Source: Minisyncoccota bacterium (lineage in GTDB: Bacteria; Patescibacteriota; Minisyncoccia; Phycocordibacterales; JAQTLZ01). From it: a DNA stretch of 64,000 nt. This document shows positions 37,558 through 59,106 of the stretch, one piece after another. Where the stretch lies: the NCBI GenBank assembly GCA_028711065.1, contig JAQTSY010000004.1:34522-98521 (forward strand), given 5' to 3'. The notes below the pieces were generated by a model, which saw only the letters and a list, made by a program, of their open reading frames with translations, had not been told where the DNA came from and searched no databases. Positions within the stretch are counted from its first letter, which is position 1; every line of letters starts with the position of its first letter. The position numbers were made by a program, and so were the translations under genes.

Positions 37558-37571
37558 AGAGGGGGACATAA

Positions 37572-37746
37572 AAAGAAAAACACCAACTGCTTGGTGTTTT
37601 TCTTTTGTGTGGTCAGGAATAATTTTGTTTTCGTCAAAACAAAATTTTCACGACCCTGCCTCGCGGTTTCGCATGTTTGCGAAACATCGCTCCGGCTGGC
37701 ACATATAAGAAAAAGAACCAAGCAGTTGGTTCTTTTTCTTATATGT
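37572..37746. repeat. cluster of four hairpins between pil operon end and tRNA-Arg
   Basis: GAAAAACACCAA-CTGC-TTGGTGTTTTTC (37572-37599); AATTTTGTTTT-CGTC-AAAACAAAATT; TTTCGCA-TGTT-TGCGAAA; 21-bp perfect stem ACATATAAGAAAAAGAACCAA-GCAG-TTGGTTCTTTTTCTTATATGT (37701-37746) abutting tRNA 3' end; first and last hairpins are related (CTGC/GCAG loops). Confidence 0.8.
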
Positions 37747-37817
37747 GCCCCCGGTTGGAATCGAACCAACATTAACGGCTTAGAAGTCCGACGTTCTATC
37801 CATTGAACTACGGGGGC
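37746..37817 (-). tRNA. tRNA-Arg(TCT)
   Basis: GCCCCCGTAGTTCAATGGATAGAACGTCGGACTTCTAAGCCGTTAATGTTGGTTCGATTCCAACCGGGGGCA; anticodon loop CTTCTAA; anticodon stem has only 3 clean pairs. Confidence 0.75.
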
Positions 37818-37923
37818 TCGGGTTTAATAGTACTGAATTTGAAAAGAATTGGAAGGAGAATAATAAAATTCCCGACCGGTGTCCCCCAGTCAGGAATATT
37901 TTTTCTTGCTCGTAATGGCAGTC

Positions 37924-38658
37924 TTACGTATTTAAGACTTGGAGTCCCCAGAAGCAGTGATACTTGAGAGCGCTTCTCTGGAAGAACTCCAGCCGAAGGC
38001 CGTGAGTTGTCCAACGGAGAGCGGGTACTCGGTTGTCTGCAACCCATGAGCCCATAGCGTACATCGAGCACTCTTTCGGTCTTCGTATCCCGCGGAAGTA
38101 AAAGTAAAGCTCCCGTGCGAGAAGTTCAGTGAGTGTCACTTCGTGTCCCTCCGTCATGGATGCGGGCCATGCGTCTGATTCCTTCTGATCCACTTGAATC
38201 ATATAGGTCTTTCCTTCGCGGAACCGATTTCCGCCCAGGGTGCCCTGTGTCGGTTCCGGTTTATACGTCATCGGGAAGAATTTTTTACAGCACTCCTGAA
38301 GATCAGCCTCAAACCGGGTCTGATTTTTCACTTCAGGAATAAAGATCGAATTCTTCGCGTTACAACTGTGTTTCTCCAGACCAGGAAAAGCGACCTGCCT
38401 TTGGAGGAGGAACTTGTAAAACCGGACCCAGTGGGCGACTTCGTTCGCCACTGTCGGCGGATGAAAAAGCACTTTCTGCACCTCGTCTGCAAGGCACTCT
38501 TTTCCTCCCGTATCTTCCACCCACCACGAGGCTGTCTTTTCAGACAGGTTGAGCGGAACCGATCCTGCAAGCGCAGTATTCAGAAGCTTGATGCTTCTTG
38601 CAGTAAGCGTACCGCCTCTTTGAGACACGGCAGATCGGTTCTCCCCATGCGTACTCAT
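37924..38658 (-). CDS. GC-elevated hypothetical protein
   Basis: 244 aa, no recognised motif; composition differs from flanks; lies between two tRNAs. Confidence 0.45.
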   Translation of the reverse strand: MSTHGENRSAVSQRGGTLTARSIKLLNTALAGSVPLNLSEKTASWWVEDTGGKECLADEVQKVLFHPPTVANEVAHWVRFYKFLLQRQVAFPGLEKHSCNAKNSIFIPEVKNQTRFEADLQECCKKFFPMTYKPEPTQGTLGGNRFREGKTYMIQVDQKESDAWPASMTEGHEVTLTELLARELYFYFRGIRRPKECSMYAMGSWVADNRVPALRWTTHGLRLEFFQRSALKYHCFWGLQVLNT

Positions 38659-38776
38659 AGGGTTCTCCTTTCATGCTGAAACGCTAAACGATCCTCCAAG
38701 AGAGCTCTCGGACAAGAATCATTTCCAATTGCACAATAGCATTAAGAGAGAAAATCGCAAGAAAAATTTGGTCGCA

Positions 38777-38797
38777 CATTGTGGTCACGGATATTTG
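38777..38797. repeat. left arm of imperfect inverted repeat bracketing tRNA-Val locus
   Basis: CATTGTGGTCACGGATATTTG; partner at 39163-39188 (revcomp ATTGTGTGATGGTCACGGATATTTTG). Confidence 0.5.
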
Positions 38798-38886
38798 AGA
38801 AACCCTGCGGGAGTTTCGACCCTTACAGGGTCAGTACCCCGATTGGATTTTTTTGCGCGGTCACGCGCTAGAAAAAATGCACAATC

Positions 38887-38976
38887 GGGCTTCGAATCCC
38901 TCACACGATGCGCCCCCGCGCATCGTTAGGGCGCACAATAAAAAATCCGCCTTCGCGGAAATTTTTTATTGTGCGC
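38887..38976 (-). repeat. tRNA-Val trailer palindrome element (same family as tRNA-Lys trailer)
   Basis: GGGCTTCGAATCCCTCA|hairpin CACGATGCGCCCCCGCGCATCGT|TAGGGCGCACAAT + AAAAAATCCGCCTTCGCGGAAATTTTTT + ATTGTGCGCC overlapping tRNA 3' end. Confidence 0.7.
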
Positions 38977-39044
38977 CCTGAGGGATTCGAACCCCCGACC
39001 TTGTCAGTGTAAATGACCTGCTCTACCAACTGAGCTAAGGGCGC
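38972..39044 (-). tRNA. tRNA-Val(TAC)
   Basis: GCGCCCTTAGCTCAGTTGGTAGAGCAGGTCATTTACACTGACAAGGTCGGGGGTTCGAATCCCTCAGGGCGCA. Confidence 0.88.
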
Positions 39045-39162
39045 AAAAGCCCAGAAACTTAAACTGCTTTAAGTTTTTGCGGACTTGTGCGAGCCGGAGC
39101 CATATTTTTCTAACAAGAAAAAAAGGCGAGGCGTGGTCAGGGAATTTTGGTTGCGACGGCAA

Positions 39163-39188
39163 ACAAAATATCCGTGACCATCACACAA
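39163..39188. repeat. right arm of imperfect inverted repeat bracketing tRNA-Val locus
   Basis: CAAAATATCCGTGACCATCACACAAT. Confidence 0.5.
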
Positions 39189-39215
39189 TAATCCATTTTT
39201 ACCTTTCAATCAAGG

Positions 39216-39962
39216 TTACGCCTTCTTTTGAATCCACCTTGCTACTATTTCATTCGCTTCTTTTTGAAGCTCTGGATACTTCGAAAGACTATGCGGGGCA
39301 TTTTTTATAAGCGCGTGTTCGAGTTGTGTCAGATCCGGTACTGCATTTTTGAAGTTAAGAATTGTCTGGTGGGGGACCATTTCATCTTTTTCCGACTCGA
39401 TAATAAGAATTTCTCCGGGAAATGTATGAATGGCTCGCAAAGCGAGTGTGGATTCAGAATCTCTTTTGTGTTCACGCCATTCATTTATTTTCGCTTGCTC
39501 GAAGATCATTCCTTTGGGCTTTTCGAATGTTTCGTCGGGATAATCTGCCGGAGCTCGGAGTATTATGAAATTCAGATTTCTTTTTTGGCTAAGGAGGAGC
39601 GCGAGGTATCCTCCAAAAGAGCTTCCGCTTACTCCAATTTTTTCTGTATCTACTTCAGACCGTTTCGCAAGGAAATCATATCCGAGGATTACATCATCGA
39701 GAAAATCTTTGCGGGAGAGGGAATTTTTATCACCCGCGCTTTTCCCATGCCCTCGTAAATCTAAAGTGAGACAGATGAAGCCGAATTTCTCCGCAAGCAT
39801 TTTTGCAGTATCAAACATCCTCTCTTGGGTGCTGTTCCATCCATGAAGAAGCAAAAGAGCAGGCCTTTTTGTTCCTTTTTCCTTCGGGAGGAAGACATTT
39901 CCTTCAAGTGTGTAGCCATTTCCCTTAATCTCTCTTCTTTCCATATTTTGATTGTAACTCAC
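39216..39962 (-). CDS. alpha/beta hydrolase (dienelactone hydrolase/S9-like)
   Basis: LLLLHGWNST...GVSGSSFGGY (GxSxG), C-terminal His. Confidence 0.7.
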   Translation of the reverse strand: MSYNQNMERREIKGNGYTLEGNVFLPKEKGTKRPALLLLHGWNSTQERMFDTAKMLAEKFGFICLTLDLRGHGKSAGDKNSLSRKDFLDDVILGYDFLAKRSEVDTEKIGVSGSSFGGYLALLLSQKRNLNFIILRAPADYPDETFEKPKGMIFEQAKINEWREHKRDSESTLALRAIHTFPGEILIIESEKDEMVPHQTILNFKNAVPDLTQLEHALIKNAPHSLSKYPELQKEANEIVARWIQKKA

Positions 39963-40170
39963 GAAATAGATTGACCCTAATTTTTCTTTGAAGAAAGTTG
40001 ATTTTAGCTAGTATATAAGCCGTATTTTTCAGCTTTTTATGCTTGACATTTGGGTCATAATATGCTATCATTATACCAGAACCTGCAATCCTTTTTATCT
40101 GTCTGTAGTCGGCCTGCGTGGCTGATGAGGATGATTGGGACCAGGGAGACCTTTGTGAGGAGTGTGAGTT

Positions 40171-41175
40171 ATGGTGCAGCAAATTGCAGTTCGGCCTATC
40201 GATGTCGTTGTGGAAGCCCTCAGGGCTGCCCGCAAAGCCGATGGTGCCGTGAATGAGGTCGGTTCGCCGATCGAAGAGCGGAGCTGGAACACTGATGTGG
40301 AGGGGGGCGCGACGTGGAAATCCATGTTCGGCAACCTCCATTTGCAGGTTTCCGGGTTCCGGCTCGAATTCCCGGAAGCCCAAGCCCAAAACATGTGGGC
40401 GGCGGCGAATATCGACAGGGGCGACAGGCCCTCGGCGGTTCGCGTGTTGCTCAGCATGCAGGCTGTGGAAGGCGCGAAGGTGCTCCACTGCGCCGCAGGT
40501 GAAGTCACTGATGTGACGGCTGGCAGTATGCCGGATCTCGTCGTGCCGGTGGTCTACGATGGTGCGGCGCCCCGCACGCGGGAGAAGGACAAGGACAACA
40601 TCGATATCGTGATTCTGCAACGGAACGGAATGTTCGTTCAGTTGCAGGTCTCGGTCATCACGCGCGGCGGAGTGTTCTACGTCGGAGTCCAGGAGATTTT
40701 CGCGGGTCAGGTCGTTCGGACCAATGCCTCGAAAGTCTTGAAGCTTGGACTCAAGAAGGAGACGATCAACGGCGCACAGGTGGGACTCATCGTCCCGTTG
40801 TTTGAGGGCAACGCCTACCCCGGCGCCGATTACTTGAATGTCTTCCCCCGCATGGGACCGAAGGTGATCAAGTACGCTGTTGCGCACGAGATGTGCGTTC
40901 CGCTCTCCGAGTGCGTCGTTGCCAAGTGGGCGCCGGAAGAGACGCCGTTGCCGCCGAATTTGAAGGCGGAAGACGGCTGGATGAGGGCGGTGGTCCGCTC
41001 CTACAACTTGGTCACTGGTTGCGGCCATCTGTTGTGCGACGACGGCGTGGATTGCTTCCTTCATTTCAGTGTGATCGGCGGGGATTTCCCTTCCGTTCCG
41101 CCCATGAAGGCCGTGGCGGTCCAGCACTGGTTGCGCGACAATCGTCGCAAGGCGCTCAAGTTCCAGAGCCTGTAA
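40171..41175 (+). CDS. GC-rich hypothetical protein with C-terminal cold-shock-like OB domain
   Basis: 334 aa; C-terminal GWMRAVVRSYNLVTGCGHLLCDDGVDCFLHFSVIGGDF resembles CspA core (KGxVKWFN..GFGFI..DG.DVFVHFSAI); TTGACA-17-TATCAT promoter 40053-40087, GAGGAG RBS; own terminator; long antisense ORF 39925-41241 judged artefact. Confidence 0.5.
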   Translation: MVQQIAVRPIDVVVEALRAARKADGAVNEVGSPIEERSWNTDVEGGATWKSMFGNLHLQVSGFRLEFPEAQAQNMWAAANIDRGDRPSAVRVLLSMQAVEGAKVLHCAAGEVTDVTAGSMPDLVVPVVYDGAAPRTREKDKDNIDIVILQRNGMFVQLQVSVITRGGVFYVGVQEIFAGQVVRTNASKVLKLGLKKETINGAQVGLIVPLFEGNAYPGADYLNVFPRMGPKVIKYAVAHEMCVPLSECVVAKWAPEETPLPPNLKAEDGWMRAVVRSYNLVTGCGHLLCDDGVDCFLHFSVIGGDFPSVPPMKAVAVQHWLRDNRRKALKFQSL

Positions 41176-41204
41176 CGCACAGGAAAACATCAGCAAATAA
41201 TATG

Positions 41205-41234
41205 GCGGAAACATGAAAAGGTTATGTTTCCGCC
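41205..41234 (+). terminator. intrinsic terminator GGCGGAAACAT-GAAAAGGTT-ATGTTTCCGCC + TTTT
   Basis: 11-bp stem right after 40171-41175 stop. Confidence 0.8.
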
Positions 41235-41295
41235 TTTTCATTTGTCCGGATTTTTTCGATGTCGAGAAGACAATTATTTGTTACTATTAAACACA

Positions 41296-42765
41296 ATGAA
41301 TCAGAGTCCTTATAATTTTCGTGATTGGAAAGCTCTTGTCCCCGACATTGAATCTGTTGTCAGGCAAATCAATCAAACAGCAATTCTTTCCGTCGGAATC
41401 ACTCCTTATACTCGCATTATTCCGGCGTTTTTTCTGAATAACTATTCAATCTATACCATTCACCGGTCGAGTGATGTCGATGTGATGGAAGAATATTTGC
41501 GAATGCATATTCTTGCAGATCATCACCCGAATATTGCCAAAAAGATACATGGCACCGGATATCTCATCGGCAATCACGTTTTTCAATCATTTCTTAAATC
41601 ATTCCGGCCGATGCCGAAGCTCATGTTCTATACAATGACCGATAAAATCGTACAGGATTTAAATCGTCTTCATATCCCATGGATTGGCAATGATCCGAAA
41701 ACATTTGAGGAAGTGAAGTATAAAGGCACATTTCGCGAACTAACAAAGAAATTAGGACTGCCGACACTTCCTTCAGAACAATATGGTCGTGAAGCATATC
41801 TCGGCTCTTCTTTTGAGGAGCTCTGGGAGAAAAATCAGGGGGCGTTCGTGGTGCAACGGGCGGATAAAGAGACGGGCGGAAATGAGGGAACTTTTTTTAT
41901 TCACAAGAAAGAAGATTTTAGCCGGTGCATTGAAATTCTAAAAGCCGATGCGGATTTTCAGTTTGTTGTGGTCGCTCCTTTTATCCAAGGCCAATCCACT
42001 TCGATGCTTGGTTGTATTATGCCGGAGGGAACGCTTTCAGGACCGCTTCAGCTACAACTTATTGATGTCCCGGAATCTCTTCATGGCGTGCCCGCAAATG
42101 GAATATTTTTCGGTAATGATCTTGGGTTTACCGCCTGGGGACAAGAGATAGAAGCGCAGGCACAGAAAGTGGTAGAGGGAATCGGAGCGCATCTTGCAAA
42201 ACAGGGATACAAAGGAATTTTTGGAATTGATTTTCTGTATGACAAAAAACGAAATCAGATCTATCCAAATGAATGCAATCCTCGATTTACCGGCTCTCTC
42301 ACGGTGCACTCTCTTATGATGCTGGAATTGGGCCTGCCTCCGCTCGAACTTTTTCATCTCATGACACATTTGAATATAAAATCTTCCTATCATTTTGAAA
42401 AAGTGAAGCAGGCTCTCAAGACAAGATTGCCGTGCGCTCACATCGCTTTTTCTCCTCAGAATATTCCTTTCATGAATCTGCCTCTCCTTGCTGGAGTGTA
42501 TTCGTTTGATCCTGCTGGTCCCGCGCTTTCATACAAAGGCCCTGGAATTTCTCTCGGTGATATCAAGGGTGAACACGATTTTCTTCTCATTGATACTGTA
42601 CCGAGCATGAAGACTGCTATTGAGCAGAAGGTGCCACGATTATTTAAATTTATTTTCAAGCGAAGCATTGCTAAATCTTCGTATGAAATAGATAAGGAAG
42701 CGGGCTATCTTCTCGAGCGATTTTCACTCTCTTTGATCGAAGCGGCAAAAGAAAATACGGAATAA
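41296..42765 (+). CDS. ATP-grasp family enzyme (hypothetical carboxylate-amine ligase)
   Basis: ~490 aa; GIFGIDFLYD...ECNPRFTGS (E-x-N-P-R ATP-grasp motif), FVVQRADKETGG. Confidence 0.55.
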   Translation: MNQSPYNFRDWKALVPDIESVVRQINQTAILSVGITPYTRIIPAFFLNNYSIYTIHRSSDVDVMEEYLRMHILADHHPNIAKKIHGTGYLIGNHVFQSFLKSFRPMPKLMFYTMTDKIVQDLNRLHIPWIGNDPKTFEEVKYKGTFRELTKKLGLPTLPSEQYGREAYLGSSFEELWEKNQGAFVVQRADKETGGNEGTFFIHKKEDFSRCIEILKADADFQFVVVAPFIQGQSTSMLGCIMPEGTLSGPLQLQLIDVPESLHGVPANGIFFGNDLGFTAWGQEIEAQAQKVVEGIGAHLAKQGYKGIFGIDFLYDKKRNQIYPNECNPRFTGSLTVHSLMMLELGLPPLELFHLMTHLNIKSSYHFEKVKQALKTRLPCAHIAFSPQNIPFMNLPLLAGVYSFDPAGPALSYKGPGISLGDIKGEHDFLLIDTVPSMKTAIEQKVPRLFKFIFKRSIAKSSYEIDKEAGYLLERFSLSLIEAAKENTE

Positions 42766-42833
42766 AGAGAGGAGTGTTTCTGTCTACCTTTTCTGTCTAA
42801 AATACGCTAGACTAGCGATATTCGTTTCAAATT

Positions 42834-43835
42834 ATGCGAGGCAAGAATCACAATGGAATAAAGGCTGTTGTTATGGGCGGGGGCACCGGTACTTTCATGG
42901 TGCTTTCTTCACTCAAACATTTTGTCAGTGACATTACTGCAATCGTAACTATGGCAGATGACGGCGGTTCGACCGGAGTGCTTCGTGATGAATACGGTGT
43001 ACTTCCTCCCGGAGATATTCGCCAGTCTCTTGTCGCGCTTTCGTCTTCTTCTGAAGTGATGCGTGAACTTTTTAATTATCGCTATTCTACCGGAGTATTT
43101 TCTGGCCATGCGTTCGGCAATCTTTTTCTTTCTGCGCTTGAAAAAATCACGGGAAGTTTCCCGAAAGCAGTGCAGACTGCGGGAGAGATCTTGCAGATCA
43201 CCGGAAATGTTGTACCTGTGACGACTGACGATATCCGTCTCTCTGTTCGCAAAGAAAATGGAGAGGTTGTGAAGGGGCAGAAATATATGATTTCATCCGG
43301 CTTTAAGAAAGGAGAAAATAATACCTTCTATCTCGAGCCAGCGGCGAAAATAAATCCAGCGGCGGAAAAAGCAATCCTCGAAGCCGATATGATAATTCTT
43401 GGTCCCGGAAATCTTCATTCATCGCTCGTACCCATTCTTCTTGTTGCTGGAGTTTCAGAAGCTTTGAAAAGGGCGAGAGCAAAGAAGATATATATCTGCA
43501 ATATGATGACCCAGCCGGGGCAAACAGAACTGTATACTGTGGCGGATTTTGTGGATGAAGTAGAAAAATATGGAGGAAAAGATTTGTTTGATTTTGTGGT
43601 TTTCAATAACAAGAAACCTCCGCAGGAATTTGTGGAAGCATATGCGCGCCAGGGCGAACAGCTTGTTTCATCTGATAAAAAAGATTTTGAAGGAAAAAAA
43701 TATGTGCCGGTGGGAGAAAATCTCGTCTCGTCAAAGGTGATACAGCCGAAAGCGGGGGATAAGATACCTCGTCCGCTCATCCGTCACGATGGGAATAGAG
43801 TTGCGCGTTTGCTCATGAAGATATACTTTTCTTAG
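42834..43835 (+). CDS. YvcK/CofD-family (UPF0052) protein
   Basis: VMGGGTGTFMVL...IVTMADDGGSTG signature. Confidence 0.8.
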   Translation: MRGKNHNGIKAVVMGGGTGTFMVLSSLKHFVSDITAIVTMADDGGSTGVLRDEYGVLPPGDIRQSLVALSSSSEVMRELFNYRYSTGVFSGHAFGNLFLSALEKITGSFPKAVQTAGEILQITGNVVPVTTDDIRLSVRKENGEVVKGQKYMISSGFKKGENNTFYLEPAAKINPAAEKAILEADMIILGPGNLHSSLVPILLVAGVSEALKRARAKKIYICNMMTQPGQTELYTVADFVDEVEKYGGKDLFDFVVFNNKKPPQEFVEAYARQGEQLVSSDKKDFEGKKYVPVGENLVSSKVIQPKAGDKIPRPLIRHDGNRVARLLMKIYFS

Positions 43836-44014
43836 TAGTGCTCAAAATATTCTTTTAAGAAAACAGAATGGTTTTCCCTGCGAGAAAACCTTCTTCTCGC
43901 TCAACTCACGGCTGTCAATGAGCCCCGCTTCTTACAGAGCAGGGTCGTTGACAGACCTTGCCCGTGAGCTTCCGCGATGTTTCTTAAAAGTACATTTCTC
44001 GCTACTATGTAACC

Positions 44015-44302
44015 ATGGTTAAAGAAATTGAAGTGAAAGTAACCGGGAGAGTCCAGATGGTGATGTTTCGCGATTTTACCATGCGGAAAGCCCGCGGACT
44101 CGGTATTGTCGGCACAGTACAAAATATGAAAGATGGCTCGGTGCACATCGTTGCGGTTGGAGAGGAGGCTGTGCTTCAAGAGTTTTTAATGAAAATTCAT
44201 CAAGGCTCGATTTTTTCTCGTGTGGAGGATGTGGCGGTAGAGTGGAGCGACCCCATGCATAATTTCACAAATTTTGTTATCCTCTATGGTTATGGTGAAT
44301 GA
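44015..44302 (+). CDS. acyP: acylphosphatase
   Basis: VTGRVQMVMFRDFT...GTVQNMKDGSVHIVAVGEE. Confidence 0.8.
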   Translation: MVKEIEVKVTGRVQMVMFRDFTMRKARGLGIVGTVQNMKDGSVHIVAVGEEAVLQEFLMKIHQGSIFSRVEDVAVEWSDPMHNFTNFVILYGYGE

Positions 44303-44993
44303 TCAAGGAGATAAGAAGGTGCACTCTGTCGGAATTATTCTCGATGGCAATCGCCGCTGGGCGAAGGCCAATGGCTTTCCTTCTCTCGAAGGACATCGGC
44401 GCGGGTATGAAAAATTGAAAGACTTGGGTGATTGGGCCGAAGAAGCTGGTGTGGAATATGTTACGGTCTATGCCTTTTCGACTGAAAATTGGAATCGAGC
44501 CAAAGAAGAAGTCTCGTATCTTATGGATTTGTTTCGCATTCTTCTCAAAAAAGATCTGCCGGAATTCCATAAGCGAGGGAAGCGGCTTCGATTTATCGGG
44601 GACTTGTCGCGTCTCGCGCCTGATCTACAAGAAGGAATCAAGAAAGCAGAAGAGCTTACTGCGAAAAATACCAGGGGGACGCTTTGCGCTTGCGTTTCGT
44701 ATGGAGGGAGAGGAGAGATTGTAAATGCAACTCGAAAAATGATTGAGAAAGGAATGAAGCCGGAAGAGATCACGGAAGAAAGTTTTGCAAAATTCCTCTA
44801 CGCGTCAGATATCCCTGATCCAGAACTCATTATCCGCACCGGAGGAGAAATGCGGCTTTCGAACTTTCTTACGTGGCAGTCGATCTATAGCGAATTCTTT
44901 TTCCCGAAAAAGTTCTGGCCGGAATTTGAAAAGGAGGATTTTTTCGCAATTCTTGAAGAATTCAAAACTCGGAAAATAAATCACGGAAAATAA
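44274..44993 (+). CDS. uppS: isoprenyl transferase (undecaprenyl diphosphate synthase)
   Basis: VGIILDGNRRWAK, VTVYAFSTENWNR, RTGGEMRLSNFL. Confidence 0.88.
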   Translation: MLSSMVMVNDQGDKKVHSVGIILDGNRRWAKANGFPSLEGHRRGYEKLKDLGDWAEEAGVEYVTVYAFSTENWNRAKEEVSYLMDLFRILLKKDLPEFHKRGKRLRFIGDLSRLAPDLQEGIKKAEELTAKNTRGTLCACVSYGGRGEIVNATRKMIEKGMKPEEITEESFAKFLYASDIPDPELIIRTGGEMRLSNFLTWQSIYSEFFFPKKFWPEFEKEDFFAILEEFKTRKINHGK

Positions 44994-44994
44994 T

Positions 44995-45723
44995 ATGGCT
45001 TTCGCTCCAAAAGTTATCTTTGAAGACAAAGATGTCTTGGTTTTAAACAAGCCTTCAGGGCTTGTTGTACATGCTGATGGGAAGACGAAAGAGACGACAG
45101 TTGCGGATTGGGTTTTGAAAAACTATCCGAAGATAAAAGAGGTAGGGGAGCCAACTGTACTTTCGACTGGCGAGACAATTTTGCGTCCTGGAATTGTCCA
45201 TCGCATTGACCGCGAGACTTCCGGAATTTTAGTTCTCGCCAAAAATCAAAAAGCATTTGAATTCTTGAAAAAGCAATTTCAGGACAGGACGATCGAGAAA
45301 ACCTATCTCGCATTCGTAAGCGGGGAATTGAAAAATAAAAAAGGTGTTATTGATAAGCCAATTGGCAGGAGCTCGACTGATTTCCGCCGATGGACGAGTG
45401 GAAAGGGAGCGCGGGGAACGCTTCGCGATGCAGTAACTGCCTACACAACACTTGAAACAGGGAAGGGATATTCGTATGTGGAAGTGAAACCGAAGACGGG
45501 TAGGACACATCAGATCCGCGTGCATTTCAAATTTATCCAGCATCCGATTCTCGGCGATTCGCTCTATGCGCCGAAGCTCGGCTACGCGCTCGGCTTCGGA
45601 CGCCTCGCGCTTCACGCGTTTCAAATAAAATTTATGCTTCCGAGCGGAAAAGAAATGTCCCTCGAAGCTCCGATACCTGCAGATTTCAAAAAGGCAGTTA
45701 AACTTTTATCTTCTAAAAAATAG
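44995..45723 (+). CDS. RluA-family pseudouridine synthase
   Basis: VLVLNKPSGLVVH, HRIDRETSGILVLAKN catalytic Asp motif. Confidence 0.85.
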   Translation: MAFAPKVIFEDKDVLVLNKPSGLVVHADGKTKETTVADWVLKNYPKIKEVGEPTVLSTGETILRPGIVHRIDRETSGILVLAKNQKAFEFLKKQFQDRTIEKTYLAFVSGELKNKKGVIDKPIGRSSTDFRRWTSGKGARGTLRDAVTAYTTLETGKGYSYVEVKPKTGRTHQIRVHFKFIQHPILGDSLYAPKLGYALGFGRLALHAFQIKFMLPSGKEMSLEAPIPADFKKAVKLLSSKK

Positions 45724-45810
45724 CCGAGAATGAGCCTCAAAGTATTGACATATTAATATTATTATGTATTAATTATCTCGGTTCATCAGTCCAACGCGGA
45801 TTGGTGCTAA

Positions 45811-46407
45811 ATGTTCTCTCGTACAAGCCATTTTCCGTGGCAGGAGGATGTTGTGAGTAACACATGCGTTTTAACGCCGGAGGTGCACGCACTTCCTTGT
45901 TTGCACGATTTTGCAAGGGGGTGGGGATGGTGCAAACTTGGCGCAGTTTGCGAGATTGCACGAGAACTCTTTGGGCAAGTTGCGAAAGGACATCCGTATC
46001 CAGATGTTCGTGAAGAGTTCCTGAAGCTCCAGAGGGAAATCACACCGACGGATTTGGCAAAACGGTTCTGCGGACTTTCGCAATTCGAGTATGCGGAGCC
46101 GATGCAATCAACAGGCGGAACAGTTACCCGTTCGGGGTTTGTCCAAAAGTTCCATGTCCACACTGGCGGTGGTCACCTGATGTTCGATGCCGATGGCCAT
46201 TACCCTGAATTTCCTGCTGAGATTCCGGATTTGCAACCCGATTGGTATGTGCCATCGGACTGGGCAGAAGATGTCGTCAGGGCAATTAAAGAAGAGGCGA
46301 GCTCTGGGGCCTGGCAGGGCGGTGGCATGCACCCTCATTACATTGGCAGGAACGTGCTCTGTTGTTGCTTTTCGCTCTGGGATAGAGAGCGGTGCAAGGT
46401 TGAATAA
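45811..46407 (+). CDS. GC-elevated hypothetical protein (Cys/His/Trp-rich)
   Basis: 198 aa, no recognised motif; composition unlike flanks; promoter-like TTGACA at ~45749; hairpin after stop. Confidence 0.45.
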   Translation: MFSRTSHFPWQEDVVSNTCVLTPEVHALPCLHDFARGWGWCKLGAVCEIARELFGQVAKGHPYPDVREEFLKLQREITPTDLAKRFCGLSQFEYAEPMQSTGGTVTRSGFVQKFHVHTGGGHLMFDADGHYPEFPAEIPDLQPDWYVPSDWAEDVVRAIKEEASSGAWQGGGMHPHYIGRNVLCCCFSLWDRERCKVE

Positions 46408-46537
46408 GTAGCGGCATGGGATGTGGCGAAAGCGACACATCTCGTGCCGCTTTTGCTTTTATCTTGTTTTAGTTGCGGATTTAGGCTCCCTGTGTTAGAT
46501 TGGTATGCGTTCACATTTTGGAAAAACCTCTAAAAAT

Positions 46538-47050
46538 ATGACCATTCATTCCCCGATAAACGTTGAAGAAAGAAAGAATCTCGACATTCGCCCAGGCGAT
46601 ACTATTCGCGTTTGGCAGAAAATTACCGAACGATACAAGGAAAAAGATAAGATCAAAGAAAAGAAACGACTTCAGGCTTTTGAAGGACTTGTGCTTGCTC
46701 GAAAACACGGAACGGAAGCTGGCGGGACATTCATTGTCCGACGAGTTGCGAGCGGGGTAGGGGTGGAGCGAATTTTCCCTTTGTATTCTCCAACGATCGA
46801 TAAGATTGAAATGATTCGCCGAGCAAAGGTGCGACAGGCAAAGCTCTACCATATTCGAGACAAGGCAGCGAAAGAGATTAGCCGAGAGATGCGACGAACA
46901 ATCACGCTCACTCGAGCTGAGACTGAAGCAAAGGTAAAGGCGAAGGAGGCGGCAGAGGCCGAAAAAGCCGATGCTGCGAAGATAAAGGCAAAGGAGATGG
47001 CGATAAAAAGCGAAGCAAAAGAAGAGAAAAAAGAGGAAGTAAAAGCATAA
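46538..47050 (+). CDS. rplS: 50S ribosomal protein L19 with Lys/Glu/Ala-rich C-terminal extension
   Basis: [13 protein letters not shown]...[11 protein letters not shown]...[22 protein letters not shown]...KLYHIRD. Confidence 0.88.
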
Positions 47051-47053
47051 TCA

Positions 47054-47087
47054 AAGGAAAAAAGACCGAAAGGTCTTTTTTCCTTTC
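47054..47087 (+). terminator. intrinsic terminator after rplS
   Basis: AAAGGAAAAAAGACC-GAAA-GGTCTTTTTTCCTTT. Confidence 0.85.
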
Positions 47088-47135
47088 TGTGGTTGAAAAT
47101 TGTCGGCAACTCGTACATAATAGGCGGGTGTTAAC

Positions 47136-47217
47136 GCCCGGGTGGGGAAATTGGTAGACCTACTCCCTTGAGGTGGGAGCGCCGTAAGGCATGCAAGTTC
47201 GAGTCTTGTCCCGGGCA
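47136..47217 (+). tRNA. tRNA-Leu(GAG)
   Basis: GCCCGGGTGGGGAAATTGGTAGACCTACTCCCTTGAGGTGGGAGCGCCGTAAGGCATGCAAGTTCGAGTCTTGTCCCGGGCA; long variable arm; followed by terminator 47221-47247. Confidence 0.88.
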
Positions 47218-47270
47218 CAAAAAGAACGCCGAAAGGCGTTTTTCTTAATTTGTGCTAAAATAGCAGTACT

Positions 47271-48629
47271 ATGAAAAAATACCTTTTCCTCGCATTTCTC
47301 GCTTTTTTCGTCTTTATTTCAGTTGCAAAAGCGGAAAGTTACAATTTTGAAACCAATCTCACCATTGGCTCATCAGGCGCGGATGTGGTGGCCCTCCAAA
47401 CATTTCTCGAAACTCATTCCTATCTCGTGATGCCCGAAGGCGTCCCAAAAGGATACTTTGGATTGCTTACGCAGATGGCGGTTGCAAAATACCAAACTGC
47501 AAAAGGAATTACCCCTGCTGTCGGGTACGTTGGTCCCGTCACTCGAGCGCAGATAACTGCTGATTCGCAAGTGAATCAGTCAAGCATCACGGTTACTTCG
47601 CCGAACGGGGGAGAAAATTGGCAAATTGGAATCAATCGTGCAATTACATGGACCACGCCGACAGTAACCTATGTTGATATTAAACTTATTCCATATCAGC
47701 CTCCTTGTACTACCGAAGTCTGTCCGATGATAGTGACGGCGCATTCTATACGTGCTCCCTTTGTTATCGCGAATCACGTGAGCCTCGATACCCATTCTTA
47801 CACTTGGCGAGCGGGAGATTATAGAGACGAAGCTGCGGATATTCCGAATGCCGGCGCGAGCGCTCCAATCTATCCGGGCCAATACCAAATTCAAATCTGC
47901 GAATCCGATACCAATAATTGCGACTCAAGCGATGCGCCGTTCACGCTTTCCTCAAACGACAAATCTCCGGTGGTAAATGGCATTGATGCACCGACAAAAC
48001 TTTCAATCAACGAAAAAGGAGTATGGACGATTCGCGCATCGGATCCTTCGGAGGGAACACTGAGTTATTTTGCGCATTGGGGAGATGAGCCAGTCTATAT
48101 GACGCCGGCAGGAGAAGCTTCTTCAACGACTGCAACTCAAGCGATACCACAATTTGTGCAGAGCTCCTCATTCCCGCATTCGTATGACAGAGCTGGGACT
48201 TACACAATTACATTCACGATAGAAAATAGTTCGGGACTTATGACGCAGGCCAATACCACAGTCGTCGTTACTGATCCATCCGCGCCACTTATCACTGTGA
48301 CGGCGCCAAATGGGGGAGAGAATTGGAAGATAAATGCCACCCGAGCGATAACGTGGAGAGACAGTAACTATAATTCCAGCGCAAAAATTGATTTGTATTT
48401 AGGTAAACAATTGCCGGTCGTCTGTATAAAAGCTCCGTGCGGGCCGTTCTTCGAGCAGTCTACCTATGTGCTAGATAAAAATATTCCAAATACCGGCGTC
48501 TATAATTGGATTGTGGGAACTGACATTGTCAATAATCCCATTCCGCCAGGCAGTTACGGCCTCCGCATTTGCGTAAGTGGAACTGATAATTGCGACTTGA
48601 GCGATGAGCCGTTTACTCTCGTCCAATAA
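47271..48629 (+). CDS. secreted protein: peptidoglycan-binding domain + two tandem PNGGENW-type repeat modules
   Basis: signal peptide; PG_binding_1-like (GSSGADVVALQTFL...GYFGLLTQMAVAKYQ); module 1 SITVTSPNGGENWQIGINRAITW...NCDSSDAPFTLS, module 2 LITVTAPNGGENWKINATRAITW...NCDLSDEPFTLV. Confidence 0.65.
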   Translation: MKKYLFLAFLAFFVFISVAKAESYNFETNLTIGSSGADVVALQTFLETHSYLVMPEGVPKGYFGLLTQMAVAKYQTAKGITPAVGYVGPVTRAQITADSQVNQSSITVTSPNGGENWQIGINRAITWTTPTVTYVDIKLIPYQPPCTTEVCPMIVTAHSIRAPFVIANHVSLDTHSYTWRAGDYRDEAADIPNAGASAPIYPGQYQIQICESDTNNCDSSDAPFTLSSNDKSPVVNGIDAPTKLSINEKGVWTIRASDPSEGTLSYFAHWGDEPVYMTPAGEASSTTATQAIPQFVQSSSFPHSYDRAGTYTITFTIENSSGLMTQANTTVVVTDPSAPLITVTAPNGGENWKINATRAITWRDSNYNSSAKIDLYLGKQLPVVCIKAPCGPFFEQSTYVLDKNIPNTGVYNWIVGTDIVNNPIPPGSYGLRICVSGTDNCDLSDEPFTLVQ

Positions 48630-48688
48630 TTTTTCTCCTCTCTCTTTTGTAAATTTTTCCAATTTCAGATAAGCTGGAGGAGTTTCAT

Positions 48689-48762
48689 GGTGTCTATGGT
48701 GTAGCGGTAGCACGACTCCCTGTGGAGGAGTAAGTTCGGGTTCGACCCCCGATTGACACCCA
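48689..48762 (+). tRNA. tRNA-His(GTG) with encoded G-1
   Basis: G-GTGTCTATGGTGTAGCGGTAGCACGACTCCCTGTGGAGGAGTAAGTTCGGGTTCGACCCCCGATTGACACC; anticodon loop CTGTGGA; extra 5' G pairs with discriminator C; terminator 48765-48790 follows. Confidence 0.85.
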
Positions 48763-48960
48763 CGAAAAAAGACCGCAAAAGCGGTTTTTTTCCCCATAAA
48801 ACCCCTGTGGAAAACCAATTTTATATTTGTTTTTGGCGGATTTTTAGGCGCGCATATTTCTTTGACTTACTGCAAGCATAGGCATACAATTTTTTTGGGC
48901 GTCCTTGAACAACTGTGTTTAGGGACATAGCGGGGGTAGTTCGAGAAGGAGGGTTCGGCG

Positions 48961-49467
48961 ATGGACAACGGGAGGGCAGGGATTCTGGCAGAGAGAGCTA
49001 AAAGGCTTCTGGAAGGAAGTGGAAGCCGAGTAAGCTTTGTCGAAAGCCAGGGGGCGAATATGAGGATTTTTCGCTTCATTAACGTGCAGGCGAAGTGGGT
49101 GATTGTTGGGATTCACTTCGTGGGCGACCAAATCATCGAGGAGTTGATCGTGGTGAAAGATGGATTCGATCGCTCCCGTGGAGACAATTGCTTGGGGGAT
49201 CGGCTTCTGGCGGCGCGCGAAGTAACAAGCGGCGGCCTCGTCGACCTTTCCTCACTCGTGAAGGTGCCAAAGGCTCTGCGCTACAGGAAGGCGCTTGAGC
49301 TGTTGAACAAGGTCGCCAGGATGATCCACAATTTTCCGCATCTTCTAGCGGGGTGCTTGCGAAAGAACCCGCTCCGGTATGAGTCTGCGGATAATTGCGT
49401 AGCGCGCAAGAGGCGCCACCGTCGGCATGTTGGTCGCATCACCTCGCCGGCTTACGCCACCTGCTAA
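48961..49467 (+). CDS. GC-rich hypothetical protein
   Basis: 168 aa; TTGACT-17-TACAAT promoter 48862-48895, AAGGAGGG RBS; composition unlike flanks. Confidence 0.45.
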   Translation: MDNGRAGILAERAKRLLEGSGSRVSFVESQGANMRIFRFINVQAKWVIVGIHFVGDQIIEELIVVKDGFDRSRGDNCLGDRLLAAREVTSGGLVDLSSLVKVPKALRYRKALELLNKVARMIHNFPHLLAGCLRKNPLRYESADNCVARKRRHRRHVGRITSPAYATC

Positions 49468-49598
49468 ATCGGCGTGTCGGACTGAATTTCGTTTTTTCCG
49501 GTCAATTGGAGGGAATAGCTTTGTTTCAGTTTCCCACGGCGGTCCGCAAGGATTGTCCGTGGGTTTTTATTTTGTTTCGGCTATACTTATTTGCATAT

Positions 49599-56490: not shown

Positions 56491-56570
56491 GTAACGAGTA
56501 GGGTAGAGAGCGGAAGGTAAGGCAAAAACCTTGAATTTTGCCAACAGTTTTACTGTGGGAGGGCATTTCA

Positions 56571-57548
56571 ATGTCGGACTGTAAATTCGTAACGCTCCTT
56601 GAAGAGCGTTGGAAGAAGGGCAAATTCGCCTGCGTCGGGCTTGATTCGGAGCTCGGAAAGATCCCGGATTGCCTTAAGATGCAGACGAGTGATTCCACGA
56701 GTGCTGTCGTGAAATTCAATACGGAAATCATTAAAACCACGGCGGAACATGTCTGTTGCTTCAAGCCAAACGGTGCGTTCTATCTCGGTGAAGGTACCGC
56801 TGGAATGACAGCCCTTGATCGCACATTCCGGATAGCGGGGCAGTTGGCACCCTCAATTCCCCTCATCCTTGACCTCAAGGTGGGGGATATCGGCAACACC
56901 AATCGCGGCTACTTGAAGTTGCTGCTCGAACATCTCTGCGGCAACGCGATCACAGTGAACCCTTATGTCGGGGCGCACTGGGATCCTGATCCGACAAAAC
57001 ACGATGGCCTCCAGATTTTTCTCGAGGAGAAAGATATCGGCGTCTTCGTGCTCTGCCGCACATCGAACAAAGGCGCGACAGCCATTCAGGAAAGGCCTGT
57101 CATAGTGGGCGAAGCGGAATTTGAACACATGCAAGCTCTGGCGACTGCTGTTGATTGGAAAGGCACTGCCGGAGGATACATCATGCCGTTCTACCAGTAC
57201 ATCGCGCTCCTTGTGGATCGCGTCTGGAACAGGCACGGCAACTGCGCGCTGGTCGTCGGCGCCAATCATCCCAAACAACTCGCGGCTGTGCGCGAACTGT
57301 GCCCGAAGATACCGATCCTCATTCCTGCTTTTGGCAAACAGATCCAAGGCGAGGAAAACATCGTCAAGCAGACGGTCTTTGCCGGGCTCGATGCTTCCGG
57401 CGGCGGCATCATCTGCAACAATTCGCGCAATATCATCTTCGCCTCTGGCGGGGAAAATTATGCCGAGGCGGCGGGTGAAGCGGCCAAGAAGTTCAACGAT
57501 GAGATCTCAGGCTTCGTTTGCGACTGGCACGATGCGGCGAAGCAGTAA
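56571..57548 (+). CDS. pyrF: orotidine-5'-phosphate decarboxylase (long/type-2 form), GC-rich
   Basis: CVGLDSEL, LILDLKVGDIGNT matches DxKxxDIxxT catalytic motif; GGGAGGG RBS before ATG 56571. Confidence 0.75.
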   Translation: MSDCKFVTLLEERWKKGKFACVGLDSELGKIPDCLKMQTSDSTSAVVKFNTEIIKTTAEHVCCFKPNGAFYLGEGTAGMTALDRTFRIAGQLAPSIPLILDLKVGDIGNTNRGYLKLLLEHLCGNAITVNPYVGAHWDPDPTKHDGLQIFLEEKDIGVFVLCRTSNKGATAIQERPVIVGEAEFEHMQALATAVDWKGTAGGYIMPFYQYIALLVDRVWNRHGNCALVVGANHPKQLAAVRELCPKIPILIPAFGKQIQGEENIVKQTVFAGLDASGGGIICNNSRNIIFASGGENYAEAAGEAAKKFNDEISGFVCDWHDAAKQ

Positions 57549-57622
57549 CCCACTGGCTCACCCCGCCCGCGGCATTGTGCCGACGGGCGGAGGGCCGAAC
57601 ATAGCGAAAGGAGGAAATTCCA

Positions 57623-58303
57623 ATGCCGTCCAATAAGACAGAGGAACAATGGATGAAGGAGTTCACGCAAAGGGGGTCGCTCTGGATCCATGATGGAAAT
57701 CCGAAACGGCCTCATGCTCTTCTCACGAGCGGCGGACACAGCAACGGTTTCTTCAACGCAATCGAGAGCATCAAAGATCCGGATCTACTCGATGAAGCCT
57801 GTGATGACCTGCTCGATCTCCTCGATGAGGAGAAAGTGGTTGATAAGTCCGAAATGGTCATCGGCTCCGCGCTCGGCGCTGTTACCATTGCGTATCAGAC
57901 TGCAAAACAGCTTGTTGGTGTGAGCGCCGGCTGGACGGAAGAAGTGATCCTGGATCCGCCTGAGGATGCACCGGAGGGCGTAAAGGGAATAAAGATCATG
58001 GAGCTGAAACGCTTCGACATTAAGCCCGGAACGAAAATCCTGGTCGTCGAAGACGTGATGACAAGCGGTGCCACCACGGAGAAAACCATCGCCGGCATCA
58101 AGAAGAAGAACGGCATCGTCTTGCCGCAGATCGCCGTGCTTTTCAACAGGTCCGGCAAGACGCATCTCGGCGAGTACGAGATCGTCGCACTCATGACGCA
58201 TCCGCTCGAGAATTGGATGTCGCAGGACTGCCCTCTGTGCAAGAAGGGCTCGGAAGCAGTTCGTCCGAAGGCGAACTGGGCGAAGCTGACGGCAGCCTAC
58301 TAA
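57623..58303 (+). CDS. pyrE: orotate phosphoribosyltransferase, GC-rich
   Basis: LTSGGHSNGFFN (KSG..S.YFFN OPRT signature), PRPP-binding ILVVEDVMTSGATT. Confidence 0.7.
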   Translation: MPSNKTEEQWMKEFTQRGSLWIHDGNPKRPHALLTSGGHSNGFFNAIESIKDPDLLDEACDDLLDLLDEEKVVDKSEMVIGSALGAVTIAYQTAKQLVGVSAGWTEEVILDPPEDAPEGVKGIKIMELKRFDIKPGTKILVVEDVMTSGATTEKTIAGIKKKNGIVLPQIAVLFNRSGKTHLGEYEIVALMTHPLENWMSQDCPLCKKGSEAVRPKANWAKLTAAY

Positions 58304-58330
58304 ATAAGTACAGACAGATAAAGGATAGTG

Positions 58331-58365
58331 GCGCGAGGTGTAGAATCTACATCTTGCGCTTTTTT
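58331..58365 (+). terminator. intrinsic terminator after pyrE
   Basis: GCGCGAGGTGTAGAATCTACATCTTGCGC + TTTTTT. Confidence 0.8.
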
Positions 58366-58388
58366 ATTTGTCTGAATTTTGCTAGGGT
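58356..58388 (+). repeat. copy 1 of duplicated intergenic module GCGCTTTTTTATTTGTCTGAATTTTGCTAGGGT
   Basis: ~30/33 identical to 59157-59189; each follows a different terminator hairpin. Confidence 0.8.
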
Positions 58389-58392
58389 GTGA

Positions 58393-59106
58393 GTGGTGGT
58401 CGCGCCGGTTTCTGTGCTCATTTCGAGTACGCTGGTTCGCCAAACCTTTCACACTGGATTAGAGGGGGTTCATTTGAGAAAACAAATTGCTGAAGACAGA
58501 AGTCCGCCGGCGTCATCGCTACTGCAGATTGGTGCAGGGGATGACGCACTCGACGTTCTCAGCCTTTCTGGCGGGATATCGGGAGATCTCTTCCAGGACT
58601 TCGTCAGGGCAGGGATGTTCCCACACGTCATGAAGCATTTCGCCGCACGCTTGGTAGAGAATTCCGCGTTTGAGGACATTCGCGGGAGTCTCGATTGTCT
58701 CTGTGCCGTGTCTGTGGAGAGCATAAAGTTTGCCACCCACATCAGTGCACTCTGTGACTGTCGCGACATTTATCTCGAGCACGAAGAGAGGGATGTTGAC
58801 ACGAACATACAGCGTGAGGCATCAATGCTCGTGGTCGGACGGCACAAAATAGAGAGGGGAATACGCTACGGACTTGTCGACAACGTGCTCAATTTCTCGA
58901 CTGTCGACGAGGCTGCAAGGCTCATCATGAGTAAGGGTGGCATTGTCGTTGGGTTGTTTGGAATCCTGAATTGTTCGCCACGCTTTATCACCAGCTATGT
59001 GTCGCAAGGTGGCGCCATCAACCTGCCCGTAATCGCGGTGAAGCATGAGCCGAATCCCATAGAGGTGCCGTGGCAGAGTAAAGACAGGAACGTGAGGAGA
59101 ATGTAG
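58393..59106 (+). CDS. GC-rich hypothetical protein, possible type-I phosphoribosyltransferase-like fold
   Basis: YGLVDNVLNFSTVDEAARLI resembles PRPP-binding motif (hydrophobic4-D-D/N-x-x-T/S); possible TTG start at ~58474 after GAGGGGG RBS. Confidence 0.35.
   Translation: MVVAPVSVLISSTLVRQTFHTGLEGVHLRKQIAEDRSPPASSLLQIGAGDDALDVLSLSGGISGDLFQDFVRAGMFPHVMKHFAARLVENSAFEDIRGSLDCLCAVSVESIKFATHISALCDCRDIYLEHEERDVDTNIQREASMLVVGRHKIERGIRYGLVDNVLNFSTVDEAARLIMSKGGIVVGLFGILNCSPRFITSYVSQGGAINLPVIAVKHEPNPIEVPWQSKDRNVRRM

Follow-up and report, generated by a model that had tools for sequence, protein, structure and literature searches.

We analysed a 64,000-nucleotide stretch of contig JAQTSY010000004.1 (positions 34,522 to 98,521; hereafter, the window) from a metagenome-assembled genome (MAG) of the Paceibacteria, a group within the candidate phyla radiation (CPR), focusing on four GC-rich open reading frames (ORFs), denoted ISL37924, ISL40171, ISL45811 and ISL48961. 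An initial annotation had read these islets as small cargo genes repeatedly acquired by an AT-rich minimal genome. The reading to which we lean, with moderate confidence, is that the four islets are real protein-coding, single-gene units that represent neither one phenomenon nor a series of recent imports: ISL40171 is an old gene with a maintained folded transcript, ISL48961 is older than the split from the closest relative, and ISL45811 and ISL37924 are lineage-specific fillers. The closest relative, MAG GCA_028710915.1, is represented by loci L002 and L004, and the loci of other relatives are numbered likewise.

The deviant composition of the islets, originally judged from inspection of the sequence, was borne out by the numbers. 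ISL40171 (40171-41175, plus strand) has a G+C content (GC) of 0.602 and a G+C content at third codon positions (GC3) of 0.767; the respective values are 0.560 and 0.663 for ISL48961 (48961-49467, plus), 0.518 and 0.567 for ISL37924 (37924-38658, minus), and 0.524 and 0.523 for ISL45811 (45811-46407, plus). GC3 of the islets is thus 0.52-0.77 compared with a median of 0.44 (range 0.29-0.55) in ~50 ordinary genes of the window, the GC of which is 0.36-0.49. The genome itself is not strongly AT-rich, contrary to what had been stated, with a window GC of 44.3%. In sliding windows, GC changes abruptly where the islet ORFs or transcripts end; around ISL40171, it passes from 0.33 (39.9-40.1 kb) to 0.57-0.66 (40.1-41.1 kb) and back to 0.37 (41.2-41.4 kb). 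All four islets combine a GC1 higher than GC2 (first and second codon positions, respectively) with a shifted GC3, a coding-like pattern. The four proteins have no match in Pfam, NCBIfam, PHROGs or PADLOC. An Rfam scan returned tRNAs only, which rules out rRNA or a known non-coding RNA (ncRNA) behind the GC peaks. The placement of the ORFs relative to tRNAs and core genes had been described correctly: ISL37924 lies between tRNA-Arg(tct) (37745-37817) and tRNA-Val(tac) (38971-39044), ISL45811 between rluA and rplS, and ISL48961 downstream of tRNA-His (48690-48761). Set against the backbone order in distant Patescibacteria, pilM-N-O - tRNA-Arg - tRNA-Val - (acyP-uppS) - rluA - rplS - tRNA-Leu(gag) - x - tRNA-His, all four islets are additions at gene junctions, and the hydrolase-ISL40171-ATP-grasp-cofD block is likewise added.

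ISL40171, the strongest compositional outlier, corresponds to NCBI protein PHV93_02750, for which a protein search yielded four relatives with 32-50% identity. The adjacent downstream gene encodes an ATP-grasp-like ligase (41296..42765, plus strand; the ORF is listed from 41224, and conservation begins at M25, that is, at 41296). With this ligase as the query against one genome per GTDB species, 11 loci were recovered, labelled Paceibacterota, Nomurabacteria, Adlerbacteria and Minisyncoccia. A homologue of ISL40171, with amino-acid identities spanning 30-50%, is located immediately upstream of the ATP-grasp gene in all 10 distinct loci that include upstream DNA, and in nine of the ten it has the top GC3 among ORFs of at least 100 aa (0.63-0.88 for the homologues vs locus means of 0.42-0.65). 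Even a distant homologue (33% identity, PF00313-positive) from a genome of 51% GC lies beside an ATP-grasp gene and has a GC3 of 0.864. In L002, the gene order is alpha/beta hydrolase - ISL40171 - ATP-grasp - cofD - acyP - uppS - rluA - x - rplS, and the ISL40171 orthologue at the same position has a GC of 0.597 and a GC3 of 0.751, with the GC of its neighbours at about 0.42-0.46. Pairwise identities of the ISL40171 and ATP-grasp proteins are correlated (Mantel r = 0.70, p = 0.001), with means of 33% and 63%, respectively, so that ISL40171 evolves at roughly twice the rate of its neighbour. In the comparison of the window with L002, ISL40171 is 50-52% identical and five neighbouring genes are 76-91% identical; the same codon is used at 46-62% of identical residues in most flanking genes and at 74% in rplS. 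Despite this synonymous turnover, GC3 of ISL40171 is near 0.8 in both genomes. The window-L002 pair on its own is no proof of synonymous saturation, which is clear only in the relatives with 30-37% identity. Given the heavy synonymous turnover, these distant relatives included, a leftover donor signature is untenable, and the GC-richness of ISL40171 must be actively maintained. By all these comparisons of sequence, ISL40171 is an old, vertically inherited, fast-evolving Paceibacteria family that maintains its GC-richness and, relative to the Patescibacteria backbone, it is a relocated ancient module.

The codon usage of ISL40171 is extreme. Only 7% of its codons end in A, and the codons TTA, CTA, ATA, GTA, CCA, TCA, ACA, AGA and CGA are absent altogether. 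Codons ending in C are preferred over those ending in U (TAC 100%, TTC 92%, TGC 100%, ATC 77%), ACG stands at 60%, and AAG makes up 81% of the lysine codons although the tRNA-Lys of the window has the anticodon UUU. Both G- and C-ending codons are elevated, and GC1, GC2 and the amino-acid composition are shifted as well. Beyond composition, the message is predicted to fold with unusual stability. The minimum free energy (MFE) of the ISL40171 mRNA is -460.6, compared with -424.5 +/- 6.2 for dicodon shuffles, which keep the protein, codon usage and dinucleotides (z = -5.8). All ten homologues deviate in the same direction (z from -2.0 to -6.3, median -5.3), whereas a control set of 20 ordinary genes, in which six ATP-grasp neighbours and genes of the 51% GC genome were represented, has a mean z of -0.36 (sd 1.2, minimum -2.4; Mann-Whitney p = 1e-5). 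The excess remains in block-local synonymous shuffles that keep the regional composition (z = -3.6 to -5.5), ruling out regional GC3 heterogeneity as an artefact behind it. It is distributed over the coding sequence (CDS), with none in the first 150 nt around the start codon (z = +0.5), and is stronger on the sense strand (z = -5.8) than on the antisense strand (z = -2.9). Values of -3 to -5.7 are also reached by other GC-rich orphans, namely, the ORF at 13599-14456, ISL37924, the L002 orthologue of ISL48961 and the fillers of the rluA-rplS junction in L002 and L023. Our literature searches turned up no description of a family-wide maintained GC3 and mRNA-folding excess in a cold-shock-domain fusion with an ATP-grasp partner.

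The ISL40171 protein consists of 334 aa, in which a linker joins a beta-rich N-domain (residues ~38-210) to the cold-shock domain at the C-terminus (~268-320). Alignment of 12 family members revealed the conserved motifs PHTRxKDxDNxD, QLQVSVxTR, NAYPGADYL and MGP, and the AlphaFold2 (AF2) model has a predicted local distance difference test score (pLDDT) of 76.5 and a predicted template modelling score (pTM) of 0.80. The C-terminal ~65 residues are modelled as the five-stranded beta-barrel of a cold-shock OB fold, and the family profile matches Csp proteins: PF00313 matches five of the 12 members (best E = 6.8e-8), and the profile hits Csp chains in PDB with E = 3.5e-7. No structural relative of the beta-rich N-terminal ~250 residues was found in PDB or BFVD. 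The family profile and the AF2 fold thus agree with the earlier description of a novel N-domain joined to a cold-shock OB fold. An RNP2-like motif, CFLHFS, is kept in the window protein. The ATP-grasp gene is ordinary in composition (GC 0.42) and mRNA folding (z = +0.5), shows 59-88% identity among relatives, matches PF02655 weakly, and matches NCBIfam PRK06524 with E = 8e-26, yet far under the cutoff of that family. On the other side of ISL40171, a gene at 39216..39962 (minus strand) encodes an alpha/beta hydrolase (Pfam Hydrolase_4 / Peptidase_S9) that is frequently linked to the ISL40171/ATP-grasp pair; in L005-L008, its homologue lies downstream of the ATP-grasp gene. ISL40171 is spanned by an antisense ORF of 438 aa (39925..41241, minus strand), which is a by-product: this frame is open because ISL40171 has no TTA, CTA or TCA codons, and dual coding was rejected, the equivalent frame being interrupted in 7 of 10 homologues.

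The view that each islet is an isolated unit bounded by its own promoter and terminator largely held. The ISL40171 promoter (40043..40071, plus strand; TTGACA-17-(TG)TATCAT, with an extended -10) matches the consensus at 11 of 12 positions, the best match between 37.4 and 49.8 kb, and ~45 nt encompassing it are 100% identical in L002, with the untranslated region and CDS downstream diverged. Its intrinsic terminator (41204..41234, plus), a 13-bp stem followed by a T-run, is kept in L002 with compensatory stem changes. ISL48961 has a promoter at 48862..48890 (plus; TTGACT-17-TACAAT, 10 of 12 consensus positions), of which the -35 and -10 boxes, together with the Shine-Dalgarno (SD) sequence, are conserved in L002, and a terminator at about 49534-49564. 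ISL37924 is preceded by the SD sequence AGGAGA, 5 nt ahead of the ATG, and followed by a terminator with a 12-bp stem (37897-37868, minus). For ISL45811, a promoter-like site (45744..45772, plus; TTGACA ... TATTAA) and a terminator (46411-46452, plus; hairpin plus T-run) were read by eye; the scanner missed the former because the final base of its -10 box is A. What did not stand out is the overall number of promoter-like sites, which across the region is at the level of chance (16 vs 14.5, no excess). Two start codons differ from the public ones. ISL45811 more likely starts with the GTG at 45853, which has GGAGG 5 nt upstream, giving 184 aa instead of the 198 aa in NCBI, where the SD at the ATG is weak; for ISL48961, the alignment with L002 favours the 168-aa form, and NCBI lists 135 aa.

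ISL48961 encodes an arginine-rich protein of 168 aa with an orthologue in L002 (9899-10387; 38% identity, E = 5e-19; GC 0.562, GC3 0.681) that is also located downstream of tRNA-His; the neighbouring genes are ~76-91% identical between the two genomes. No homologues were found in more distant loci. An orthologue in the same place and of the same composition implies vertical inheritance since before the window/L002 split, and ISL48961 is, as far as this alignment indicates, a vertically inherited gene with very fast protein evolution and a maintained high GC3.

ISL45811 presents a different picture. Among 1.84 billion representative proteins, it matched only itself, apart from weak matches (E from 1e-6 to 1e-3) of residues ~122-170 to the YDPEF..LRPDWF repeat of DUF2683-like proteins. 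The rluA-rplS gap of L002 holds an ORF of 218 aa that is not related to ISL45811; orthology with this ORF or with the 254-aa ORF in the gap of L023 was rejected, Smith-Waterman scores being no better than those of shuffles (z = -0.3 to -1.1). In the majority of 52 metagenomic relatives, 30-100 nt separate rluA from rplS. Given the empty gap in most relatives and the unrelated fillers elsewhere, we consider ISL45811 a lineage-specific insertion at a recurrently used junction. The filled junctions are located at 45724-46504 in the window, L002 6101-7135, L023 8699-9895, L034 8675-11165, L038 1211-3792, L041 4242-6696, L051 2107-5395 and L059 8660-9576. Three different GC-elevated orphans occupy this junction, including the GC-rich 254-aa orphan in L023, and the other fillers include a ~580-aa zinc-ribbon protein, a MazF/PemK-like pair and a P-loop kinase-like gene.

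ISL37924 (244 aa) has only two homologues, with 47% identity, both on short contigs (51-57% GC) where the neighbouring genes differ and tRNAs are lacking; they are not GC-richer than their flanks there. A metagenome scan found no relatives of ISL37924, and its AF2 model is unusable (pLDDT 37). Its mRNA shows folding z values of -3.4 and -3.7. The gap between tRNA-Arg(tct) and tRNA-Val(tac) measures 12-385 nt and lacks an ORF in distant relatives, compared with 1153 nt in the window, and ISL37924 is probably an insertion. Together, ISL45811 and ISL37924 do look like younger, lineage-specific single-gene fillers, acquired or newly arisen, with only moderately raised GC3.

For ISL40171, the mechanism that we envisage would involve selection of synonymous sites for G or C, with nearly all A-ending codons avoided, and also for base pairing, producing a hyper-structured mRNA with an open start region. 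By analogy with better known messages, such a transcript could be nuclease-resistant and long-lived and/or dependent on a chaperone. The protein, with its cold-shock domain, may in turn target the structured message that encodes it, and it may be a partner or a substrate of the ATP-grasp enzyme. In Escherichia coli, CDS structure correlates with mRNA abundance, and RNase E cleaves unpaired A/U-rich sites (PMC4619774); a further report describes CspA as promoting translation of its own structured mRNA (PMC9947658). We put forward, as a tentative proposal, that Paceibacteria keep a small gene class whose transcripts, and not their proteins alone, are selected for extreme G+C content and base pairing, with the ISL40171/ATP-grasp module as the prototype, and that the message would be long-lived or chaperone-gated, possibly opened by its own product.

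Several observations weigh against these readings. Specific base pairs are not preserved between related ISL40171 homologues: the kept fraction (0.24-0.33) shows no excess over shifted controls (0.26-0.39). What the homologues share is therefore a GC-rich, highly folded message. Conserved foldedness of this general kind is weaker evidence than a defined RNA fold would be, and MFE predictions are imprecise for RNAs of 1 kb. Nor is the folding excess common to all islets (ISL45811, z = 0.0; ISL48961, z = -0.7, its L002 orthologue, -4.3); given this unevenness, no single mechanism accounts for the four. The window ISL40171 protein itself is sub-threshold for a cold-shock domain, with no Pfam match and an NCBIfam CspA E-value of 0.052, and its RNP1-like motif is degenerate (TGCGHL, with GCGHL for KGFGF; relatives have GWGF, GYGF and GFGR), making binding of RNA or other nucleic acids by this protein uncertain. 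The function of a structured, GC-rich mRNA in an uncultured organism is one that we infer by analogy. The ISL48961 comparison involves one close relative, L002, and the empty tRNA-Arg/tRNA-Val site next to ISL37924 is seen at long range only, no close relative covering it. Finally, rplS is the sole ribosomal-protein gene used below against expression-linked codon bias.

How the islets came by their composition can be explained in other ways. The initial annotation implied that all four are recent, independent foreign cargo from GC-rich donors, inserted at tRNA or intergenic hot-spots and not yet ameliorated. The deviating composition with sharp boundaries, the tRNAs adjoining three of the four islets, and the addition of all four to a backbone conserved in distant relatives are what such a history would leave, and two islets fit it individually: the homologues of ISL37924 are confined to GC-richer contigs with other neighbours, and in L002 ISL45811 is missing or its place is taken by another ORF. 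Plausible imports also exist among other GC3 outliers of Patescibacteria (aconitase, isocitrate dehydrogenase, ThyX and pyrE/pyrF of the window). For ISL40171 and ISL48961, however, recent acquisition is already refuted, by the condition that the initial annotation itself had set, as both have syntenic orthologues with the same composition: ISL40171 is found in 10 of 10 relatives with equal or higher GC3 and co-diverges with its ATP-grasp neighbour, ISL48961 is equally GC-rich in L002, and synonymous turnover has been heavy. As had been noted, no integrase or transposase is nearby (none was detected by Pfam searches of all flanking ORFs between 36.6 and 50.7 kb). The short direct repeats proposed as a check at the islet borders did not materialize, none bracketing any islet; at the end of the tRNA-Val trailer element described below, beside ISL37924, lies a degenerate direct copy of the 3' part of the tRNA, and ISL37924 itself is outside this element. 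A phage, plasmid or defence origin was rejected, as the islets have no viral, phage or plasmid homologues in IMG/VR, INPHARED or PLSDB and no PHROGs or PADLOC match, and protein searches (5.8 billion and 1.84 billion sequences) produced no donor-like homologues, only Paceibacteria or unassigned relatives. Recent import thus remains plausible for ISL45811 and ISL37924, with sites that are empty in relatives, but as an account of all four islets it is quite unlikely. The possibility that some islets are non-coding, that is, structured ncRNAs or chance ORFs in stop-poor GC-rich DNA, draws on the fact that long chance ORFs do arise in such DNA, as the 438-aa antisense ORF exemplifies, on the orphan status of ISL45811 with its weak SD at the ATG, and on the unusually stable folding of several GC-rich ORFs. 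We deem it very improbable: ISL40171 belongs to a conserved family of proteins, with a confidently modelled fold and a cold-shock domain; ISL37924 and ISL48961 have protein homologues (38-47% identity) with conserved blocks; the codon-position pattern in all four is that of coding DNA; and ISL45811 has the GGAGG-GTG start at 45853 and no folding excess.

Two further explanations concern the maintenance of high GC3 without selection on the RNA. GC-biased gene conversion in fast-evolving recombination hot-spots under diversifying selection could drive GC3 up as alleles are replaced again and again, and it would account for the co-occurrence of fast protein evolution with high GC3 (33-52% identity vs 63-91% for neighbours), for the lack of nucleotide similarity in the N-terminal third of ISL40171 between genomes with 74-85% identical flanks, and for the joint rise of G- and C-ending codons, which fits a compositional force better than tRNA matching. 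Yet GC returns to background within 100-200 nt of the ORF or transcript ends, with no elevation in the conserved flanks, and conversion predicts no pairing excess over shuffles, no sense-antisense asymmetry and no unstructured start. Both the sharp boundaries and the excess of base pairing speak against biased gene conversion acting by itself, and we regard it as unlikely. Ordinary translational selection would instead make the islets very highly expressed genes with optimal C- or G-ending codons. In its favour, promoters and SD sequences are both strong and conserved, ISL40171 prefers NNC to NNU, and cold-shock proteins are typically abundant. However, rplS shows no elevation of GC3 (0.43 in the window; mean difference from neighbours of +0.001 across 19 relatives); AAG, GAG and CAG, which are not favoured by anticodons starting with U, such as that of tRNA-Lys(UUU), are also preferred; GC1, GC2 and amino-acid composition shift too; and the folding excess is left unexplained. 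We accordingly give this explanation a small chance. Maintained selection on ISL40171, with separate histories for the other islets, stays our preferred reading.

The islets resemble genomic islets and islands at tRNA genes in their deviating composition, sharp borders, location at tRNAs or gene junctions and cargo without known function; in addition, the sites occupied by ISL45811 and ISL37924 are vacant in relatives. The islets differ from these elements in that no integrase or transposase, direct repeats or donor was found, each contains a single gene, and the two most deviant genes, ISL40171 and ISL48961, have the same genomic context and an equally high GC in relatives. Bacterial genes that were acquired or are ORFans are usually AT-richer than the host, whereas the four islets are GC-richer. 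The C-terminal ~65 residues of ISL40171, with a cold-shock OB fold matching Csp profiles, are akin to the CspA family (PF00313), but ISL40171 is a 334-aa fusion to a ~250-aa domain without a structural relative, and RNP1 is degenerate in the window protein. The E. coli cspA mRNA is described as structured and self-regulated (PMC9947658, PMC6386945). By analogy, the ISL40171 mRNA seems to carry structural information, and its product could help ribosomes through its own message; in contrast to cspA, the excess of structure extends over the whole 1-kb CDS instead of residing in a defined 5' thermosensor, homologues share no specific helices, and the ATP-grasp neighbour is obligatory.

Selection for mRNA secondary structure in bacterial coding regions was reportedly described by Katz and Burge in 2003. 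As in that case, the native ISL40171 CDS folds more stably than its dicodon-shuffled versions. The known effect is small and genome-wide, whereas that of ISL40171 is gene-specific and large (z about -5), tied to a GC3 excess of 20-40 points, and family-wide, with none in the neighbours. The pairing with the ATP-grasp gene recalls ATP-grasp enzymes with a dedicated partner encoded next to them, such as RimK, which acts on ribosomal protein S6, and graspetide ligases: here, too, the ligase gene strictly adjoins a gene for a small-to-medium protein in many genomes. Unlike in those systems, the C-terminus of ISL40171 is not conserved, no acceptor motif being seen there in the family alignment and no modification site having been identified, and the link consists of gene neighbourhood only.

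The window also contains an apparently undescribed, covariation-supported RNA element attached to tRNA genes. This element of ~180 nt starts exactly at the 3' ends of tRNAs, on the same strand (Val, Lys, Leu-gag, Arg-tct). Copies are located 3' of tRNA-Val (38790-38972, minus strand) and tRNA-Lys (21062-21236, minus) in the window and 3' of tRNA-Leu in L002 (7825-8000). With these three copies as the basis of a covariance model, six more were detected in other Patescibacteria, each abutting the 3' end of tRNA-Arg, -Val or -Leu (L033 4226-4407, L031 649-811, L030 7403-7581, L021 6031-6178, L027 7487-7786 and L036 2797-2993). In the predicted structure, the share of paired cells is 93.6% and compensatory changes occur in 47 of 59 pairs, a level that none of 500 shuffles reaches; slid controls gave 43-54%. 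G-U pairs outnumber A-C pairs 20 to 8, favouring the tRNA strand. In helix 1, the 3' end of the tRNA forms part of a hairpin that resembles a bidirectional terminator, and the element contains an inverted copy of the T-arm of its own tRNA and ends in a degenerate direct copy of the 3' part of the tRNA. It has no match in Rfam. It may represent an ncRNA linked to the tRNA, a module for processing or termination, or an integrated element of miniature size, such as a miniature inverted-repeat transposable element or an att-like scar.

The surroundings of the tRNA pair flanking ISL37924 show further irregularities. The order of tRNA-Arg(tct) and tRNA-Val(tac) is constant, and their orientations flip independently (+/+, -/-, -/+, +/-) when the window (37745-39044) is compared with L033, L027, L021, L049, L030 and L054; these flips may be linked to the palindromic trailer elements. 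Two hairpins abut the 3' end of tRNA-Arg(tct): a long imperfect one (37561-37751), whose 41-nt arms are 80% complementary, and a perfect one of 24 bp (37698-37749). A related motif of 15-17 nt, TGTGGTCA(C)GGA(A)TATTT, occurs at 37608 and 38780 and, inverted, at 39166, bracketing tRNA-Val.

Elsewhere in the window, beyond the islet interval, GC-rich ORFs are present at 12376-13362 (plus), 13599-14456 (plus) and 56538-59106 (plus). The ORFs at 12376-13362 and 13599-14456 have a GC of 0.59-0.61 and a GC3 of 0.66-0.74 and lack a family match; the mRNA of 13599-14456 folds like that of ISL40171 (z = -5.0 to -5.7 vs dicodon shuffles), and that of 12376-13362 has z = -0.75. The third, a three-gene block with a GC of 0.53-0.55 and a GC3 of 0.61-0.69, encodes an orotidine monophosphate (OMP)-decarboxylase-like protein, a phosphoribosyltransferase and a weakly pyrE-like protein, and is plausibly an imported pyrimidine-salvage/biosynthesis cassette. 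GC3-outlier metabolic genes, for aconitase, isocitrate dehydrogenase and ThyX, are also found in the Patescibacteria loci L027 and L048. At 26634-26708 (minus), ARAGORN predicts a tRNA-Arg with the anticodon GCG, which is unusual for bacteria; the CGN box is normally read in bacteria by the ACG anticodon (as ICG).

Compositional outliers are routinely read as horizontally transferred, and here the deviant composition of ISL40171 has been held through the whole history of a bacterial class. As the strongest outlier is ancestral, composition-based calls of horizontal gene transfer in CPR genomes can be wrong. The trailer element adds a new RNA motif, a structured element attached to tRNA genes, and the ISL40171 locus offers a new lead, an uncharacterised conserved Paceibacteria module in which a protein with a novel domain and a cold-shock domain is encoded beside an ATP-grasp ligase. 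We take the maintained GC3 and the family-wide folding excess as direct evidence that a gene's composition can be dominated by selection for transcript structure acting at its synonymous sites, which makes ISL40171 a rare and clean natural case for mRNA-level selection in organisms with minimal translation machinery. If the proposed gene class is real, structured transcripts would provide a means of storing or gating expression in ribosome-poor, slow-growing symbionts.

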